Shown piece by piece: positions 5,794 to 32,264 of a DNA stretch of 43,041 bases. Origin of the DNA: a virus. Its lineage: Duplodnaviria > Heunggongvirae > Uroviricota > Caudoviricetes. Positions within the stretch are counted from its first letter, which is position 1, and every line of letters starts with the position of its first letter. The DNA lies in IMG/VR virus record IMGVR_UViG_2744054964_000002, positions 1 through 43,041 of that record; one strand, written 5' to 3'. Under the pieces are notes generated by a model. It saw only the letters and a program-made list of their open reading frames with translations. It ran no database searches and was not told the DNA's origin. The translations under genes and the position numbers were made by a program.

Positions 5794-5863
5794 GGTTTCT
5801 CCTGAAATTTGGATGTGCAGAACTCGCCCGCGTAATGCCAGGCCGATCGGTTGAATAGGGTGG

Positions 5864-6061
5864 TTACTGCTGCGCGATGGATTTCGCCGGGAACTCGCCG
5901 TTGCGGATGATGCTTTCTACCGGCCAGCACTCAGCTGACACTTTCTGCTCTGTAGCTGCCAGGCTGCATTCCTGCTGGCTGTCGTAAACGCCGAGAATGA
6001 CATCCTGATAATCACCGTTGGTCATTGCCACGGTCAGGACGAGTGCGAATAAAGTTTCCAT
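5864..6061 (-). CDS. Small hypothetical protein (65 aa from the internal ATG)
   Basis: Track ORF 5864-6115 begins with GTG; an internal ATG at 6061 (METLFALVLTVAMTNGDY...) overlaps the stop of the upstream small ORF (TGATG), suggesting coupled translation. Hydrophobic N-terminus. Confidence 0.35.
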   Translation of the reverse strand: METLFALVLTVAMTNGDYQDVILGVYDSQQECSLAATEQKVSAECWPVESIIRNGEFPAKSIAQQ

Positions 6062-6189
6062 CAGTGAAGAGTCCTCCCGATGGCGACGGCGTAAAGGCGT
6101 TTTGCTTCTTCCCACGCCGGAGCATTGCGATGGAGCACCGCGAACGACGCGAGCCGTTGGGCCTCTCTGATCTGCTGCTGGTTTACCAT
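6061..6189 (-). CDS. Small hypothetical protein (42 aa), not in ORF track
   Basis: Hand-translated MVNQQQIREAQRLASFAVLHRNAPAWEEAKRLYAVAIGRTLH; preceded by AGGAAA RBS; stop overlaps the next start. Confidence 0.3.
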   Translation of the reverse strand: MVNQQQIREAQRLASFAVLHRNAPAWEEAKRLYAVAIGRTLH

Positions 6190-6324
6190 GATTTCCTCTT
6201 GGCCTTATCGCGGCGAACGGAACGGTTAATACAAGACTTCAACGCATTTATTCAGTGTTTCATTGGGCGGTGGATGGCCGCCGGTTGTCATAACTTGAGT
6301 CACTCGTAAATAACTCCAGGTATG

Positions 6325-6348
6325 AAAAAGGCCGCCTACCTGGCAGCC
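6325..6348 (-). terminator. Candidate rho-independent terminator (minus strand)
   Basis: Minus-strand RNA GGCUGCC-AGGUA-GGCGGCC (7-bp stem with one G-U pair) followed by UUUUUC; lies about 75 nt downstream of the 6427-6768 ORF. Confidence 0.4.
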
Positions 6349-6426
6349 TCAACTTGAATGAGTGCCGGGATGTTTAGCCACGCCCGGCGCGTGCTCTCCT
6401 GCTATTCCCCAACAGCAAGAAATCGC

Positions 6427-6768
6427 TTACTCTTTAATTTCCCCAGCAGTAGAAAGGATATATTCATGCAAACCATGCGGACCGTGTGCCCTGACTGCGG
6501 AAGTGAGATGTTCAACCAGCCCGATGATTTTGACTTTGAGACAAATTTCACCGGCGTCAGTTGTGCTGACTGTGGTCGAGAAATCACTAAGGACGATGTT
6601 GTCAATCAGGCCACGGACACGGTCAAAAAACAGATCGACGACATGCTCAGGAATTCCCTGAAAGGAACTGGCTGGAAGTTCAAGTAACTTTAAAAGCTCC
6701 CCGGTCTGAGTAAGTACCTCGCTGGCGTCTACGTTAAGCAGTAGTGGCGCCGTTTTTTTATCTGCCAT
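6427..6768 (-). CDS. Hypothetical protein (113 aa); competes with the antisense ORF 6466-6687
   Basis: ATG at 6766-6768 preceded by GAGGAG RBS (5-nt spacer); same orientation as the surrounding leftward operon; followed by the candidate terminator at 6325-6348. No recognisable domain. Confidence 0.4.
   Translation of the reverse strand: MADKKTAPLLLNVDASEVLTQTGELLKLLELPASSFQGIPEHVVDLFFDRVRGLIDNIVLSDFSTTVSTTDAGEICLKVKIIGLVEHLTSAVRAHGPHGLHEYILSTAGEIKE
6466..6687 (+). CDS. Hypothetical small zinc-ribbon protein (73 aa); antisense to 6427-6768
   Basis: Internal ATG at 6466 with AAGGA RBS; paired CxxCG motifs (CPDCG ... CADCG, 19 residues apart) typical of a zinc ribbon; third-position GC looks higher than in the opposing frame (hand count). 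Confidence 0.35.
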   Translation: MQTMRTVCPDCGSEMFNQPDDFDFETNFTGVSCADCGREITKDDVVNQATDTVKKQIDDMLRNSLKGTGWKFK

Positions 6769-7313
6769 ACACACTCCTCTTTTTGTTTACCGTCAGCCCC
6801 TCGCAAAGAGCTGCTGGTAAACTTCGCCACACTCTCGCAGTGGCCGCGCACATGCCCTTGAGACCTTGTCGCTCATCGCCGCTCATAACCGGTGCGCGTC
6901 TGGCGTTCGCGCTGCTTTACCGGAGCTTGTTTTGATATAAGAACCTTGACCCATCACTACACAGGCTCGCCATTCGGCGACTCAGGGCGGCATCATTACT
7001 GCTGCATTGCCTTTAGGCTGCGGTCTGTCCGCTTTAGTTCTTCATTGGAATCACTCCTCTAAGTTGAATCAGCGCCCCATCATCGGAGCGCTTCAAATTG
7101 AGTGACTTATCAGCTCATCGCAGCGTGGTCCTCTACACCTACCGTACGCATACGGACTCAGTGCTTACCTCGATCCCATCGGGTGCCATTTCTTTTTGCC
7201 AGGAGAGCTACGGCTTGCCTGTCACTCAGTCTGATTTGTTAAAGAAGCAGGCGACTTGCTGTCCGCCGCTGGCTAACTTCGCTCAGCTGTCGATGTTTCG
7301 TTTCGATGAGCTG

Positions 7314-7342
7314 ATTATTAACTAATGGTTATTTTCAGTCAA
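7314..7342 (-). promoter_or_regulatory. Candidate leftward sigma70 promoter (possible pL)
   Basis: On the minus strand TTGACT (7342-7337), 16-17-nt spacer, then TAATAA/AATAAT (7320-7314); embedded in an AT-rich TGGTTA repeat region. Hexamer match only. Confidence 0.3.
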
Positions 7343-7460
7343 TAACCATTGGTTAATTATTTTGCCGTTGGTTATTAAGGTTATGATTTATTGGTTAATT
7401 TAGTTCTGTTATGGATTTGTGCAGTACGTGCTATGCTGCAAAAAACATCAGGAGGTAGCT

Positions 7461-7667
7461 ATGGAACGAGATGAACGTGCAGATGAACGAATAGCCTTCA
7501 TGGCTGGAGAGGTTGGGTGCGTAGTGTTCGAGCTGGTTTATAACGGAATTGAAATCAATAAGGACAACATTGTGGGATTTCTGGAAGGGAAGCGCAAAGC
7601 CGTAGGAAACGTGATCCATAAGGGGATGCTACGGGATGCGGCTGAGATGGTGCGGAAGGGCAAATAA
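7461..7667 (+). CDS. Hypothetical protein (68 aa)
   Basis: ATG at 7461 preceded by AGGAGG RBS and an extended -10 like element (TGcTATGCT, 7429-7437); convergent with the cI-adjacent cassette. Confidence 0.4.
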   Translation: MERDERADERIAFMAGEVGCVVFELVYNGIEINKDNIVGFLEGKRKAVGNVIHKGMLRDAAEMVRKGK

Positions 7668-7686
7668 AAACCCGGCGCTGGCCGGG
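7662..7686 (-). terminator. Rho-independent terminator ending the cI-adjacent cassette
   Basis: Perfect 6-bp GC stem CCCGGC-GCUG-GCCGGG (7671-7686) followed on the minus strand by UUUUUAUUU, starting 8 nt after the stop of the 7695-8045 gene. Confidence 0.6.
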
Positions 7687-7694
7687 TGATAGCG

Positions 7695-8045
7695 CTATTT
7701 CAAAACAAGTCCGTTTAAAGCATCAAGAATTTTAGAAACATAATTACCGAATACATAAACACAAAAAGCAAACACAACTGATAGAATGGCAGAAGAAGCT
7801 TTAAGTGTTGTCTTCATGGATTTTACTCCATTTTCGATTTCACTCAGCCTTGAGTCGATGCTCTTAATGTCTGATTTAATCTCAGCAATATCTCGCTTAA
7901 TGTATTCTACATCGGATTCTAAGCGTGCAACTCTGTATTGCATGTCATCGCCTCCGCCATTACCGTTGCCATGCCTCAAAGTATGCACGTTGAATTCTTC
8001 GTTAGCAACTGGTTGGCTTCGTTTGAGATATGCTGAATTTGCCAT
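7695..8045 (-). CDS. Coiled-coil protein with C-terminal transmembrane helix (XhlA-like architecture); cassette gene B
   Basis: 116-aa ORF; Gly-rich N-terminus (HGNGNGGGDD), heptad-like coiled coil (RLESDVEYIKRDIAEIKSDIKSIDSRLSEIENGVKSMK), hydrophobic C-terminal segment (AILSVVFAFCVYVFGNYV). Start is 1 nt after the stop of gene A. AT-rich by eye. Confidence 0.6.
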   Translation of the reverse strand: MANSAYLKRSQPVANEEFNVHTLRHGNGNGGGDDMQYRVARLESDVEYIKRDIAEIKSDIKSIDSRLSEIENGVKSMKTTLKASSAILSVVFAFCVYVFGNYVSKILDALNGLVLK

Positions 8046-8046
8046 G

Positions 8047-8472
8047 TCAGACTTTCCATTCTTTTGATAAGTAGAAATAACACTCTGAATCGTGAACTAA
8101 TCTACTTTTATCTTTATCATCAATGACATGAAGTGACAGTGTTACCTTGTAAACACCCTCTTCTTTAACAAGGATGTTCATCAGAGACATATTTTCAATG
8201 CTTACTGACTCACTTCCAGAGGTCGTGCCAGCCACAATAGGGTCTGATTGCAATGACTGACCACTACCGAAATCAATTCTCTGGTCGCCAAAAAATAGGT
8301 CTACATCAACACGATAGTTAACTTTAGTTTTAATAATTAGCCCAAAGGAAACGTCAATGCTGATTTTCCCTGAGTGCTCATCTGGCTTTATCCATGGCTG
8401 TGGATAATTTAAGGAGCGCGATATTTTACCGGGAAATATCTGGGATACATATAAAAATGAAATCTTTTCCAT
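8047..8472 (-). CDS. Hypothetical protein (141 aa); cassette gene A
   Basis: ORF with GAGGA RBS 6 nt upstream of the ATG, 72 bp downstream of the cI stop; AT-rich codon usage by eye; no recognised domain. Confidence 0.6.
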   Translation of the reverse strand: MEKISFLYVSQIFPGKISRSLNYPQPWIKPDEHSGKISIDVSFGLIIKTKVNYRVDVDLFFGDQRIDFGSGQSLQSDPIVAGTTSGSESVSIENMSLMNILVKEEGVYKVTLSLHVIDDKDKSRLVHDSECYFYLSKEWKV

Positions 8473-8544: not shown

Positions 8545-9321
8545 CTACAGCAGCACCGAGTACCAGAAGAGACGGCCAATTATCTCGACATCATCAATAT
8601 CAGCCTCTTCGTCTGGGTAGGAGTCGTTGTTGTAACTGCGGATGATCAGCTTCCCACCTGGCTTACGATACAGTTGTTTAATGCGCTTGAGTTGACCATT
8701 CCCGCCATCTGTCTGACCAATGGCATACAGTTTCCCATCAACTATGCGTTTGTTGTTCGTATCGACGGCTACAGTCGTACCATCCGGTATCACAGGTTCC
8801 ATGCTGTCGCCAGTAGCAGGGAAACACAGGATGCCAGACCCATCTGTGTTAGCTCCAACGCGGCGGAGGGTTGCCTTTGAGAACCTGAGCTTAAAACCAT
8901 TGTGATCTTCGCTGTGTACGCGTCCATCGCCACACGCAAATTCAATATCCTTAAGAAACGGCACTTCAACCTCGTCAGCAGGAAGCGGTGTGTTTTTATC
9001 CCAGGCGTCAACAGTTCCCCATTCAGATTCTGGAGGGATAGATGACTCCCTACGCAGTTCAGGTTCGGGATCATTCCTTCCGTATTCAAGCCACTCAGGC
9101 CGTACCCCAAGCCAGCGGCTAAGGGCAAGGATATTGGTTTGGTCTGGTATCGCTGATGCGTTAAGCCATTTCCAGATCCCGGGCTCAGATACAGTAATTC
9201 CTTGGGACTTCATAGCCTCTCTGATCCTACCAGCCTGCCCACGACCACCAACGCCAGCATCAAGCAATGCAGCGCGAAGTCTTTTCGAGAATTCTTCTTT
9301 TAAATCGTCTTTTTTAACCAT
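8545..9321 (-). CDS. cI: CI-like prophage repressor (N-terminal HTH, C-terminal LexA/S24-type autocleavage domain)
   Basis: 258-aa ORF; C-terminal domain contains the S24 serine motif (ATGDSMEP) and downstream lysine (KRIVDGKLYAIG); divergent from a cro-like gene across an operator-bearing intergenic region. Confidence 0.9.
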   Translation of the reverse strand: MVKKDDLKEEFSKRLRAALLDAGVGGRGQAGRIREAMKSQGITVSEPGIWKWLNASAIPDQTNILALSRWLGVRPEWLEYGRNDPEPELRRESSIPPESEWGTVDAWDKNTPLPADEVEVPFLKDIEFACGDGRVHSEDHNGFKLRFSKATLRRVGANTDGSGILCFPATGDSMEPVIPDGTTVAVDTNNKRIVDGKLYAIGQTDGGNGQLKRIKQLYRKPGGKLIIRSYNNDSYPDEEADIDDVEIIGRLFWYSVLL

Positions 9322-9405
9322 TCGTTAATTATCAATTAGAGTTGACATAACTGTCAGTTAAGATATAACCTTAACTCGTAGTTAATATAGTTAACGGAAA
9401 ACACT
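9322..9405. promoter_or_regulatory. OR-like operator/promoter region between cI and cro
   Basis: Palindromic TTAACT/AGTTAA half-site pairs (TAACTGTCAGTTA at 9348-9360; TTAACTCGTAGTTAA at 9371-9385; GTTAAC at 9391-9396) overlapping a strong rightward promoter: -35 TTGACA (9342-9347), 16-nt spacer, -10 TATAAC (9364-9369). Confidence 0.65.
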
Positions 9406-9651
9406 ATGAACCCAATGCAATTTGCAATCGAAGCTGTAGGCGGTCAAACCGCTGCTGCTCGCCTGTGTGGCCTATCGAACGTTGCTATTCACAAGTGGGT
9501 GAAGAACGCGGCGCTGCCTCGTACTGAGTACACAGAGAAAACCAACTATTCGCAGCTTTTGGCTGACGCATCAAATGGGCAGTTTACGGCTGAATGGCTC
9601 CGTCAAGCAGCTAACCCTGACCGAATTAAACAAGATTCACATGCCGCCTGA
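9406..9651 (+). CDS. cro: Cro-like HTH regulator
   Basis: 81-aa ORF, first rightward gene after the operators; HTH-like segment TAAARLCGLSNVAIHKWVKNAALP. Confidence 0.7.
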   Translation: MNPMQFAIEAVGGQTAAARLCGLSNVAIHKWVKNAALPRTEYTEKTNYSQLLADASNGQFTAEWLRQAANPDRIKQDSHAA

Positions 9652-9691
9652 CCGGCGGCAATAACCAATTAAATCAGAGGAAGTATCGCAA

Positions 9692-17142: not shown

Positions 17143-17832
17143 ATGAACAGTCAGCAACTGGAATACGTACGTCAGCAGCTCATTGTGGCGACCGCAGACC
17201 TCAGCGGGGCGACGAAAGGGCAGCTGGTAGCTTTCGCCGAAAACGCGCAGTTCACCGCGACGGCGCGCAGCCGGGGCAGGAAGAAAATCACCGACCCGGT
17301 CACTGGTCGGAAAGTTAACCCTGACGGCCCGGCGATGAGCGGCAGCCAGTCCCGCGCAAAGGGATCATCTATCGCGCTGGTGGGGCCGGTTGAGTTTGTG
17401 ACCGCATCGTGGCGCCGCGCGGTGCTGTCGCTTGAAGACCACCAGAAAGCATGGCTTCTGTGGAACTACAGCGAGAATATCCGCTTCGAGTACCAGGTGG
17501 CGATAACTCAGTGGGCATGGGCAGAGTTCAGGGAACAGCTCGGCGCGAAGAAAGTGGCGGGCAAGACGATGGAGCGCCTGAAGAAGCTTGTCTGGCTCGC
17601 GGCTCAGGACGTGAAAGCAGAGCTGGCAGGGCGTGAGATGTACGAATATCAGGCGCTGGCGTCGCTGGTTGGCGTAACGCCAAAAAACTGGTCAGAGACC
17701 TTTACTGACCGCTGGGTTGAGATGCGCAGCATCTTCCTGCGACTGGATAGCGGGGCTTTATTGCAGGTTACGCGATCACGTTCACAACAAAAGGCGACAA
17801 ATTTAGACTCAAGTCTTGCAAAACTGGATTGA
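17143..17832 (+). CDS. Putative late-gene antiterminator (Q-like)
   Basis: 229-aa ORF located between rusA and the late promoter/terminator, as Q is in lambdoid phages; assignment by position and general resemblance, not a confident family match. Confidence 0.5.
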   Translation: MNSQQLEYVRQQLIVATADLSGATKGQLVAFAENAQFTATARSRGRKKITDPVTGRKVNPDGPAMSGSQSRAKGSSIALVGPVEFVTASWRRAVLSLEDHQKAWLLWNYSENIRFEYQVAITQWAWAEFREQLGAKKVAGKTMERLKKLVWLAAQDVKAELAGREMYEYQALASLVGVTPKNWSETFTDRWVEMRSIFLRLDSGALLQVTRSRSQQKATNLDSSLAKLD

Positions 17833-17844: not shown

Positions 17845-17897
17845 TCATGTAAATCTGATATCGTCGCCATAGCTTCGTAGGTCGACAAAGAATTAAG

Positions 17898-17922
17898 AAC
17901 CCGCCATCGAGCGGGTTTTTTG
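17898..17922 (+). terminator. Rho-independent terminator (tR'-like)
   Basis: CCCGC-CATCGA-GCGGG stem-loop followed by TTTTTTG, about 50-70 nt downstream of the candidate pR' start. Confidence 0.65.
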
Positions 17923-31722: not shown

Positions 31723-32264
31723 ATTCAGCAGCGATACGGCAAATGGTTGTCACTGCACTAACCGGGACAACCAGCGCGGGCGACCGCGTATTCTCTCCAC
31801 GCGACTGGTCAACTTCACCAGATATGTATCCTGTGTTGTTGGTTCAGACGCCTTTTGAACAGAAAAAATCACAGGGGCGTAATACCCCTGCTTTTACCAC
31901 CCTCACCACTGTCAGGATCACTGGGCGCGTTCAGGAGTATGACGGCGATACGGTGGATGATGGAGCCATGCGGGCAGAGCTGGCGCTTGAAAGCCTTCGC
32001 GAGCAGGTGGAGCGCGCGGTGATCAACAGCTACGAACTGACGCGGAATATTCAGAAATACGCGGAAGTTCGTTCAACCATCAATGTTGATTCAGAAGGAG
32101 AGGCCCATATGGGGCAGCTTCTTTTCGAGATCGACATAGAGCATTACCAGGGGCCGGAAGATTTTTATCCTGTCCAGTCGGTTCCCCTTGAGGGCATGGA
32201 TATTGCGGTCGATATGCCAGACGGCACAGTTAAACCGGGTATCAGCCTCAATCTTCAGGAGTAA
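31719..32264 (+). CDS. Hypothetical neck/tail-completion protein (181 aa)
   Basis: ORF between the FII-like gene and the sheath gene; no confident family. Confidence 0.45.
   Translation: MNSAAIRQMVVTALTGTTSAGDRVFSPRDWSTSPDMYPVLLVQTPFEQKKSQGRNTPAFTTLTTVRITGRVQEYDGDTVDDGAMRAELALESLREQVERAVINSYELTRNIQKYAEVRSTINVDSEGEAHMGQLLFEIDIEHYQGPEDFYPVQSVPLEGMDIAVDMPDGTVKPGISLNLQE

Follow-up and report, generated by a model that had tools for sequence, protein, structure and literature searches.

Introduction

To our knowledge, the put sites of HK022 and HK639 are the only known case of processive antitermination by RNA alone in phages. The put RNA acts via the zinc-binding domain of the RNA polymerase beta-prime subunit, without Nus factors. 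For put, the cis-acting RNA is sufficient, and no dedicated protein factor is required (PMC9378689). N-independent protection of untranslated RNA from Rho by boxA and Nus factors is reported for rRNA operons and CRISPR arrays (PMC6614797, PMC7665894). The boxA element can also repress together with Nus factors, as at suhB (PMC5725501). In mEp021, the N analog Gp17 is encoded in the rightward operon, away from the pL-proximal position (PMC11893012).

We analysed a DNA stretch of 43,041 nucleotides (IMG/VR record IMGVR_UViG_2744054964_000002; hereafter the window), in which a preliminary description had noted a candidate leftward promoter followed by an ORF-free leader. This region is read here as the long untranslated leader of the early-left (pL) operon, assembled from swappable RNA cassettes, in which a boxA element and the adjoining RNA segB could together act as an N-independent, Nus-assisted antitermination RNA. 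The reading, drawn from sequence comparison, is plausible but tentative, and we would stop short of calling it probable.

Results

Prophage setting

The DNA of the window is that of a lambdoid E. coli prophage. Strain 88COLEC carries the 563 bp in question (6780-7342) in its chromosome with 100% identity; of 5,426 complete E. coli genomes, 12 contain 80% or more of this region and 168 a part of it. Clear family matches in the window were obtained for cI (8545-9321, minus strand), cro (9406-9651, plus strand), Q (17143-17832), holins and endolysin. Two accessory ORFs on the minus strand (8047-8472 and 7695-8045) and a small plus-strand gene of phrog_3975 (7461-7667) are located between the region and cI.

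By Rfam release 15 at gathering score, no match was obtained in the region. When 6000-8000 was scanned permissively, with E values of up to 10 allowed, no match covered segB or module C, the second RNA family described below, and all matches in the scan were far below the gathering score. The sole Rfam match at gathering score in the window was isrJ (17848-17920, plus strand; 58.7 bits), which starts 16 nt past the stop of the Q-like gene (17143-17832) and has a terminator hairpin and a U run at its end. It looks like a short pR'-proximal late leader RNA, not a free-standing sRNA. A hairpin without U tail, GCCGCC-UGACC-GGCGGC, overlaps the end of cro (9638-9654, plus strand); phi80 carries at the same place a near-identical GCCGCC-UAACC-GGCGGC, which is unannotated there.

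Promoter, operators and ORF-free leader

The leftward promoter proposed in the preliminary description, a sigma-70-like TTGACT-17 nt-AATAAT sequence (7342-7314, minus strand), held up as a candidate for pL. It is the only sigma-70-like site within 5800-7800 and agrees at 10 of 12 positions, a count not above chance, as 1.8 such matches are expected in 2 kb and one was found. The call is nevertheless credible because the site is overlapped by operators and its position matches that of phi80 pL. The inverted repeats I3, I4 and I11, with the core TAACCATTGGTTA (7312-7360), are the OL operators; their sequence recurs at 9315-9334 and 9372-9387, between cI and cro (OR). The distance from the candidate promoter to the conserved leader sequence ATCGAAACGAAACATCGAC is the same as that from the annotated phi80 pL. 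The promoter at 7342-7314 is thus predicted to be a good pL candidate, with +1 at about A7307. Apart from the operators, no repeats of the nutL/nutR type were found between the two early operons.

The stretch without ORF was also borne out. No minus-strand ORF longer than 42 aa was found over about 530-540 nt past the promoter, and within 6886-7342 there was no start of a minus-strand ORF of 25 aa or more. The longest minus-strand ORF touching the region in the ORF list is 42 aa (6758-6886). Both of the hairpins that had been singled out exist and are part of conserved helices. Module C contains CTCGCC-ATTC-GGCGA (6966-6980) as one of its covarying hairpins, and CCGTA-CGCA-TACGG (7142-7155) lies within segB. 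The description of the leader as hairpin-rich was unsupported by folding energy: against shuffled sequences, the leader as a whole, segB and module C had z-scores of -1.5, -1.3 and +0.2, respectively. The evidence for structure is therefore covariation, not stability. On this evidence, the suggestion of a structured non-coding RNA was confirmed in the form of two distinct RNA families, both conserved and both showing compensatory changes in their base pairs. Four parts make up the mosaic leader: the start, hairpin and boxA (7307-7236); segB; module C; and a terminal hairpin, D.

Shared leader start and boxA

The promoter-proximal 44 nt of the leader, ATCGAAACGAAACATCGACAGCTGAGCGAAGTTAGCCAGCGGCG (7264-7307, minus strand), are near-identical in phi80, HK225, HK639 and ENT1, and the first 26 nt were found in at least 120 IMG/VR contigs. 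Over about 75 nt, the piece 7307-7236 showed 96-99% identity to phi80. A hairpin, GGCGGACAGCAAGUCGCC (7250-7267, minus strand), is located directly 5' of boxA and is also present in phi80, HK225 and ENT1. It was flagged as terminator-like because boxA gives it a U-rich tail; the order of hairpin and then boxA is rrn-like.

The boxA-like element itself is UGCUUCUUUAACAA (7249-7236, minus strand), homologous to the annotated boxA of phi80 nutL. Compared with the rrn consensus UGCUCUUUAACAA, the window copy carries one extra U, and a strict search allowing two mismatches misses it because of this insertion. The same variant was observed in 10 of the 64 leaders of the segB class. The boxA consensus of the segB family is GCTCTTTAACAA, and the family-consensus element GCUCUUUAACAA is identical to the rrn boxA. 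No short boxB hairpin was found past boxA; the closing helix of a 125-nt multi-branch domain is located there instead. In the rightward operon, neither a boxA nor a second nut-type site was detected, nor any repeat that the pR operon has in common with the leader. Antisense within the accessory ORF 8047-8472 there is another boxA-like string, TCTTCTTTAACAA (8159-8171, plus strand); 0.96 such strings are expected by chance.

The segB RNA

Downstream of boxA follows segB, a conserved multi-helix RNA of about 165 nt (7072-7235, minus strand; nhmmer E = 2.6e-51). The fold consists of a closing helix (7225-7221 with 7106-7102), a multi-branch core and a trailing hairpin (7087-7075), and includes strongly conserved unpaired stretches. 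The window copy preserves each of the 33 predicted pairs, without a single mismatch. Among 13 representatives, 99.5% of cells were paired and nine pairs were changed on both sides, against 0-2 in slid controls; the independent events are few, because the signal is mostly a single split into two subtypes (4 versus 9 sequences).

The 38-nt core pattern of segB was found in at least 119 IMG/VR contigs, corresponding to 109 unique sequences, and the family is narrow, with 11 clusters at 95% identity. A scan of metagenomes with a looser pattern gave true segB at only 10 of 120 loci. segB was found only in pL leaders and in one copy per genome; of 124 contexts, 122 had a gene for a cI-type repressor upstream, and in 104 of these the gene was on the strand of segB. 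The distance between boxA and segB is fixed, and the unit is inherited together even when the sequence upstream is unrelated.

Phage database records with segB are ENT1 (an Enterobacter phage), BHUENT3, BHUENT6 and the vB_EcoM-606R2 group. In vB_EcoM-606R2 (L012 / L388; record positions 31990-32260), the order is a promoter-like TTGACG-17-TATAAA, a hairpin with six U, a perfect boxA and segB. The hairpin with six U before this boxA is terminator-like in appearance. An operon of more than 10 kb, which includes genes for DNA polymerase, a TIR-like protein and helicase, has the 606R2 boxA-segB unit at its head, and this leader is likewise followed by a convergent gene.

A coding explanation for segB was rejected, as substitutions are spread evenly over codon positions and the frame that is open on the antisense strand varies with the subtype. 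Other antisense ORFs were also rejected as genes, having no family matches, no third-position bias and a change of frame between subtypes. PGAP/RefSeq lists a hypothetical protein, WP_127341169, at 7098-7325 (plus strand), antisense to segB, boxA and pL; it likewise lacks a family match, a third-position bias and a frame that is kept between segB subtypes. This ORF is probably a mis-annotation that was propagated by conservation at the RNA level.

Comparison with put

The preliminary description had also raised the possibility of RNA-based antitermination as by the put sites of HK022. A profile made from HK022 putL, HK022 putR and HK639 putL gave no match in the window (best E = 2.1), although it recovered its three sources and a fourth put in viral contig L037 (E 1e-10 to 1e-21). 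The put boundaries were rebuilt from HK022, HK639 and PMC9378689, and HK022 putL matches the residue numbering of PMC9378689. The two stem-loops characteristic of put, with GAACGGCGCG..CAUGCGUCGG / GGCGGG.UCAGGA.GA.CGGCAAU, are likewise absent from the window.

The window leader occupies the place of put in HK639. HK639, ENT1 and the window have a left junction that is identical to the nucleotide, ending with AGCCAGCGGCG, and all three resume at hairpin D; the sequence filling the slot between these identical flanks differs between HK639 and the window. Hairpin D, GUUUACC..GGUAAAC (6785-6822, minus strand; -20.5 kcal/mol, z = -2.8), corresponds to the 3' third of the 126-nt feature annotated in HK639 as 'putL-like antiterminator RNA'. 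By alignment of HK022 putL, HK022 putR and HK639, both put stems are located in the 5' two-thirds of this feature, so that hairpin D is outside both, and it is the only piece of the feature that the window shares. Since it also follows leaders without put (45 of 64 segB leaders and 2 of 55 phi80-type leaders, besides 10 of 37 put leaders), hairpin D belongs to the backbone and not to put. As judged from sequence, boxA points to a route that is linked to Nus factors and thus distinct from that of put.

Module C

Module C is a conserved structured RNA of about 225-240 nt (6820-7060, minus strand; nhmmer E = 2e-75), present in the window as a sole copy that starts 11 nt past segB. Its ends are sharp. 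The 5' end is formed by a Shine-Dalgarno sequence, AGAGGAG (7060-7054), and a mini-ORF, AUG AAG AAC UAA (7045-7034), and the 3' end by a covarying hairpin (6844-6826). A mini-ORF of 1-4 codons is present in all copies of module C; its presence is kept while the codons vary (AUG UGA elsewhere). Conservation of both the Shine-Dalgarno sequence and a mini-ORF hints at a part for ribosome loading in module C.

Support by covariation was good. In 64 sequences, 22 of 41 pairs were changed on both sides, compared with 9.9 +/- 1.9 in shuffled alignments and 10-12 in slid controls; none of 500 shuffles reached the observed value. The window copy has two helix-breaking mismatches that are unique among the 64 sequences, A7003:C6989 and U6861:U6850. 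Three further proposals for module C were rejected: coding, for lack of 3-nt periodicity; a long-range pairing GAGUCGC/GCGAC seen by alifold of seven sequences, as one subtype has a local hairpin instead; and a minimum-free-energy pairing between the mini-ORF and GGUUCUU, as the partner sequences differ in other copies inspected by eye, uncounted.

Besides at least 119 IMG/VR contigs, 17 species-representative genomes contain the core pattern of module C; one of these genomes is labelled Vagococcus, and the other 16 are from Enterobacteriaceae (Kluyvera, Citrobacter, Pseudocitrobacter, Leclercia, Klebsiella and others). Module C invariably has the orientation of the operon around it. The 142 copies were distributed over pL leaders (37), the position directly after Q (30), positions after lysis genes (24) and other places (51). 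It accompanies N of the P22 type in about 20 cases, upstream of the N genes, and segB at 16 loci, with a gap of 6-12 nt. In the viral contig L037, the put-like element (3260-3197, minus strand; E = 4e-11) is located directly upstream of module C (3171-2922, minus strand). As it combines with N, put and segB, module C is an accessory element and not a substitute for N.

Region downstream of the leader

The minus-strand ORF at 6427-6774 had been taken as the first downstream gene. The ORF exists, is not Arg-rich and is followed by a terminator, as described, but it is probably not a gene. It is a homolog of HK639_45, with no NCBIfam match and a weak PHROG match. On the opposite strand, a zinc-ribbon gene of the ECs_2282 family (6466-6687, plus strand; 73 aa) matched NCBIfam NF047912 (ECs_2282_CxxC) with 81.9 bits against a cut-off of 37. 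Among close relatives, counts of synonymous and non-synonymous changes did not discriminate between the two overlapping ORFs at 6427-6774; the distant homologs were decisive. The zinc-ribbon ORF is intact in homologs at 29-73% identity; in the distant homolog L186 the minus-strand ORF is interrupted by stops and the plus-strand ORF is open. Judged from these sequences, the minus-strand ORF is probably spurious and antisense to the zinc-ribbon gene. Existing annotations conflict here, as HK639 and a Klebsiella phage have the minus-strand ORF called and PGAP calls the plus-strand zinc-ribbon gene.

The zinc-ribbon gene is convergent with pL transcription and inside the predicted early-left transcript. 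Because the downstream ORF was mis-called, the untranslated leftward leader is probably about 1.1 kb long and not 540 bp. Next comes an intrinsic terminator (6358-6325, minus strand; -16.1 kcal/mol) with a 9-pair stem and U5, which weak matches to isrD and isrK also picked up as their terminator portion. Past the terminator in the leftward direction, small ORFs and then gam/bet/exo are located. With such a long untranslated antisense stretch and a terminator before gam/bet/exo, some form of antitermination would be useful.

Search for an N gene

The absence of an N-like gene, noted in the preliminary description, was supported by tblastn with ten N, N-like and Nun proteins (lambda, P22, phi21, phi80, mEp213 (two proteins), yong1, HK225 proteins and Nun), which gave no match of E < 0.05 in the window. 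The panel also gave no match in Enterobacter phage ENT1 or in the vB_EcoM-606R2 record, and was negative over 3 kb downstream in 63 of the 64 segB leaders. A scan of all window ORFs for Arg-rich motifs, including those of the early operons, gave no credible candidate. The mEpimmI phages were considered as a model and set aside, as they carry the N-like Gp17 and are thus not the same thing.

These results bear directly on an alternative, namely that boxA and segB form a nut-like loading site for an unrecognised phage antiterminator protein encoded elsewhere, with segB as a large boxB equivalent. The company of boxA with segB, as in nut sites of the N type, would fit such a partner, and both the panel and the Arg-motif scan leave room for a novel one because N proteins are small, diverse and fast-diverging; the N analog of mEp021, encoded outside the pL-proximal position (PMC11893012), is a precedent. 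Against this alternative stand the negative panel results in the window, ENT1 and 606R2 and the lack of a credible Arg-rich small ORF in the early operons. Furthermore, no protein family was found to be consistently linked downstream of segB, and a profile search of the rightward operon gave no second segB-like site. We consider a protein partner unlikely.

Alternative cassettes at the leader site

A census was made of 162 IMG/VR leaders that start with the same 26-mer. The boxA plus segB cassette was found in 64 leaders, all 64 with a boxA-like element and 14 also with module C. The phi80-type nutL region was found in 55, of which 54 have a boxA-like element and 11 also module C. Put of the HK022/HK639 type was found in 37, and neither boxA nor module C was detected in any of these; the remaining 6 belong to none of these classes, with a boxA-like element in 2 and module C in 3. 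Counted from the leader start, the cassettes begin at 58-72 nt, and in none of the 162 leaders are two of the three main cassettes combined. The lack of boxA in put leaders (0 of 37) fits the requirement of put for cis-acting RNA only (PMC9378689).

The phi80-type class is not a clean N-dependent comparator, because phi80 N follows within 3 kb in only 5 of these 55 leaders; in 44, no match to the N panel was found. The phi80-annotated nutL region of about 135 nt (boxA plus 'core'; for example positions 2300-2580 of L002 (HK225)) may be a further RNA cassette. Three leaders (L413, L456 and L437) have the same start and hairpin D with other inserts of about 110-150 nt, which match neither segB nor put nor the phi80-type nutL region. 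More cassette types seem to exist at the leader site.

The distribution of cassettes also weighs on a second alternative, in which boxA alone would protect the long untranslated RNA from Rho through the Nus complex, as in rrn or CRISPR transcripts, and segB would be a sensor or attenuator tuning early-left transcription, an element for processing or stability, or an RNA released from the leader to act in trans. The leftward leader is indeed long and untranslated, N-independent function of boxA is reported for rRNA operons and CRISPR arrays (PMC6614797, PMC7665894), and strong conservation of unpaired stretches, as seen in segB, is found in RNAs that bind ligands or proteins. However, segB keeps its fixed distance from boxA and is co-inherited with it despite unrelated upstream sequence, and the mutual exclusivity of segB and put would be unexpected if segB were unconnected to antitermination. 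This alternative is about as improbable as that of a protein partner. For the reading that we favour, boxA plus segB as an antitermination RNA, the exclusive use of one slot between identical flanks is the main reason to assign to this cassette the job of put, by a Nus-linked route.

Discussion

The anatomy of the leader, its conservation and covariation, the statistics of its contexts and the lack of put and N are observations. Recruitment of Nus factors and antitermination are inferred, and the case for the latter is best argued comparatively, since boxA plus segB fills the slot of put and of the phi80-type nutL region in otherwise identical leaders. In the mechanism that we propose, transcription would start near 7307 and produce in order the 44-nt shared leader, the hairpin, boxA and segB. 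The boxA element would recruit the host NusB-NusE (S10) complex, and segB would stand in for boxB plus N of the N-type phages or for put of HK022 and HK639. By the joint action of boxA and segB, RNA polymerase would become resistant to termination without a phage N protein. The resistant polymerase would then cross about 1.1 kb of Rho-prone untranslated RNA, the convergent zinc-ribbon gene and the terminator at 6358-6325, and thereby reach gam/bet/exo. Module C would be a separate accessory RNA, riding in the leaders of whichever antitermination system is present. Several observations are counterpoints to this mechanism. Sites of this kind are present in both early operons of HK022 (putL, putR) and of lambda (nutL, nutR), but the rightward operon of the window has no second segB or boxA. 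The inserted U sets the window boxA apart from the consensus, the segB family is narrow with few independent covariation events, its folding energy is ordinary, and the phi80-type leaders are an impure comparator.

The opposite effect of boxA plus segB, repression, would make the cassette a suhB-like, Nus-dependent attenuator or translation block that holds the leftward operon low until a signal arrives. Such a role has a parallel in the repression of suhB by Nus factors and boxA (PMC5725501), and the hairpin before boxA with its U-rich tail is terminator-like, as is the hairpin with six U directly 5' of boxA in 606R2. We regard this as quite improbable, as the slot is otherwise occupied by elements that favour read-through, put and the phi80-annotated nutL region, and as no alternative terminator/antiterminator pairing is evident in segB. 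Very improbable indeed is a decaying prophage that lost its N gene by recombination and kept the leader as a functionless patchwork: the leader is plainly mosaic and the window's module C carries two helix-breaking substitutions absent from the other sequences of the 64, but the same boxA-segB leader recurs in at least 119 viral contigs and in phage database records, the segB copy of the window is intact, and the genes for cI, cro, Q, holin and endolysin can each be assigned clearly to a family.

Antitermination by cis-acting RNA and by boxA is known in each case as a kind; the architecture of the window is not. A literature search by sequence and by topic found no description of segB or module C. 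It is possible, though we hold it with some doubt, that boxA plus segB represents an undescribed class of cis-acting RNA that uses host Nus factors and no N, a third solution beside N-nut and put, and that module C is a second undescribed family of mobile structured RNA with a ribosome-loading mini-ORF. If antitermination by boxA plus segB is true, a second, unrelated RNA working with boxA would link the mechanisms of phages and rRNA operons, and would explain early gene expression without N in a sizeable group of enterobacterial temperate phages (at least 119 viral contigs). It would also offer a compact new tool for terminator read-through. The cassette census is in itself a natural experiment, with one promoter and one set of flanks carrying three alternative inserts. 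Independently, module C is a widespread structured RNA with good covariation support, located at the heads of early and late operons.

Comparison with known systems

The window resembles the N-nut systems of lambda and phi80 in having boxA a few tens of nt past pL, and for phi80 the likeness extends to homology of the leader, hairpin and boxA with the annotated nutL boxA region. In contrast to these systems, the window has no N gene, no small boxB hairpin and no matching rightward site.

With the boxA of rRNA operons and CRISPR arrays, the segB family shares a consensus boxA equal to that of rrn, and a hairpin precedes the window boxA as boxB does in rrn leaders; long untranslated RNA would be protected in both cases. 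The differences are the large conserved folded domain that follows boxA and the location in a phage early operon; boxC was not identified.

The bar minigenes of lambda are ORFs of two codons with a Shine-Dalgarno sequence in the pL transcript. Module C is similar in its strong Shine-Dalgarno sequence and ORF of 1-4 codons in a phage early or late transcript. Unlike bar, the mini-ORF of module C is the fixed 5' end of a structured RNA of about 225 nt, and its codons are not conserved.

Put of HK022 and HK639 is located just after pL, as boxA plus segB is after the candidate pL of the window, and in both cases no N gene is present. HK639 further has the 44-nt leader start and hairpin D in common with the window, put and boxA plus segB being alternative inserts between them. 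The two RNAs have no similarity in sequence or fold: put is about 70 nt long with two stems, whereas segB is about 165 nt long with at least seven helices. boxA is always present with segB and never with put. In HK022, put is placed in both early operons, while segB occurs once per genome, in the pL leader.
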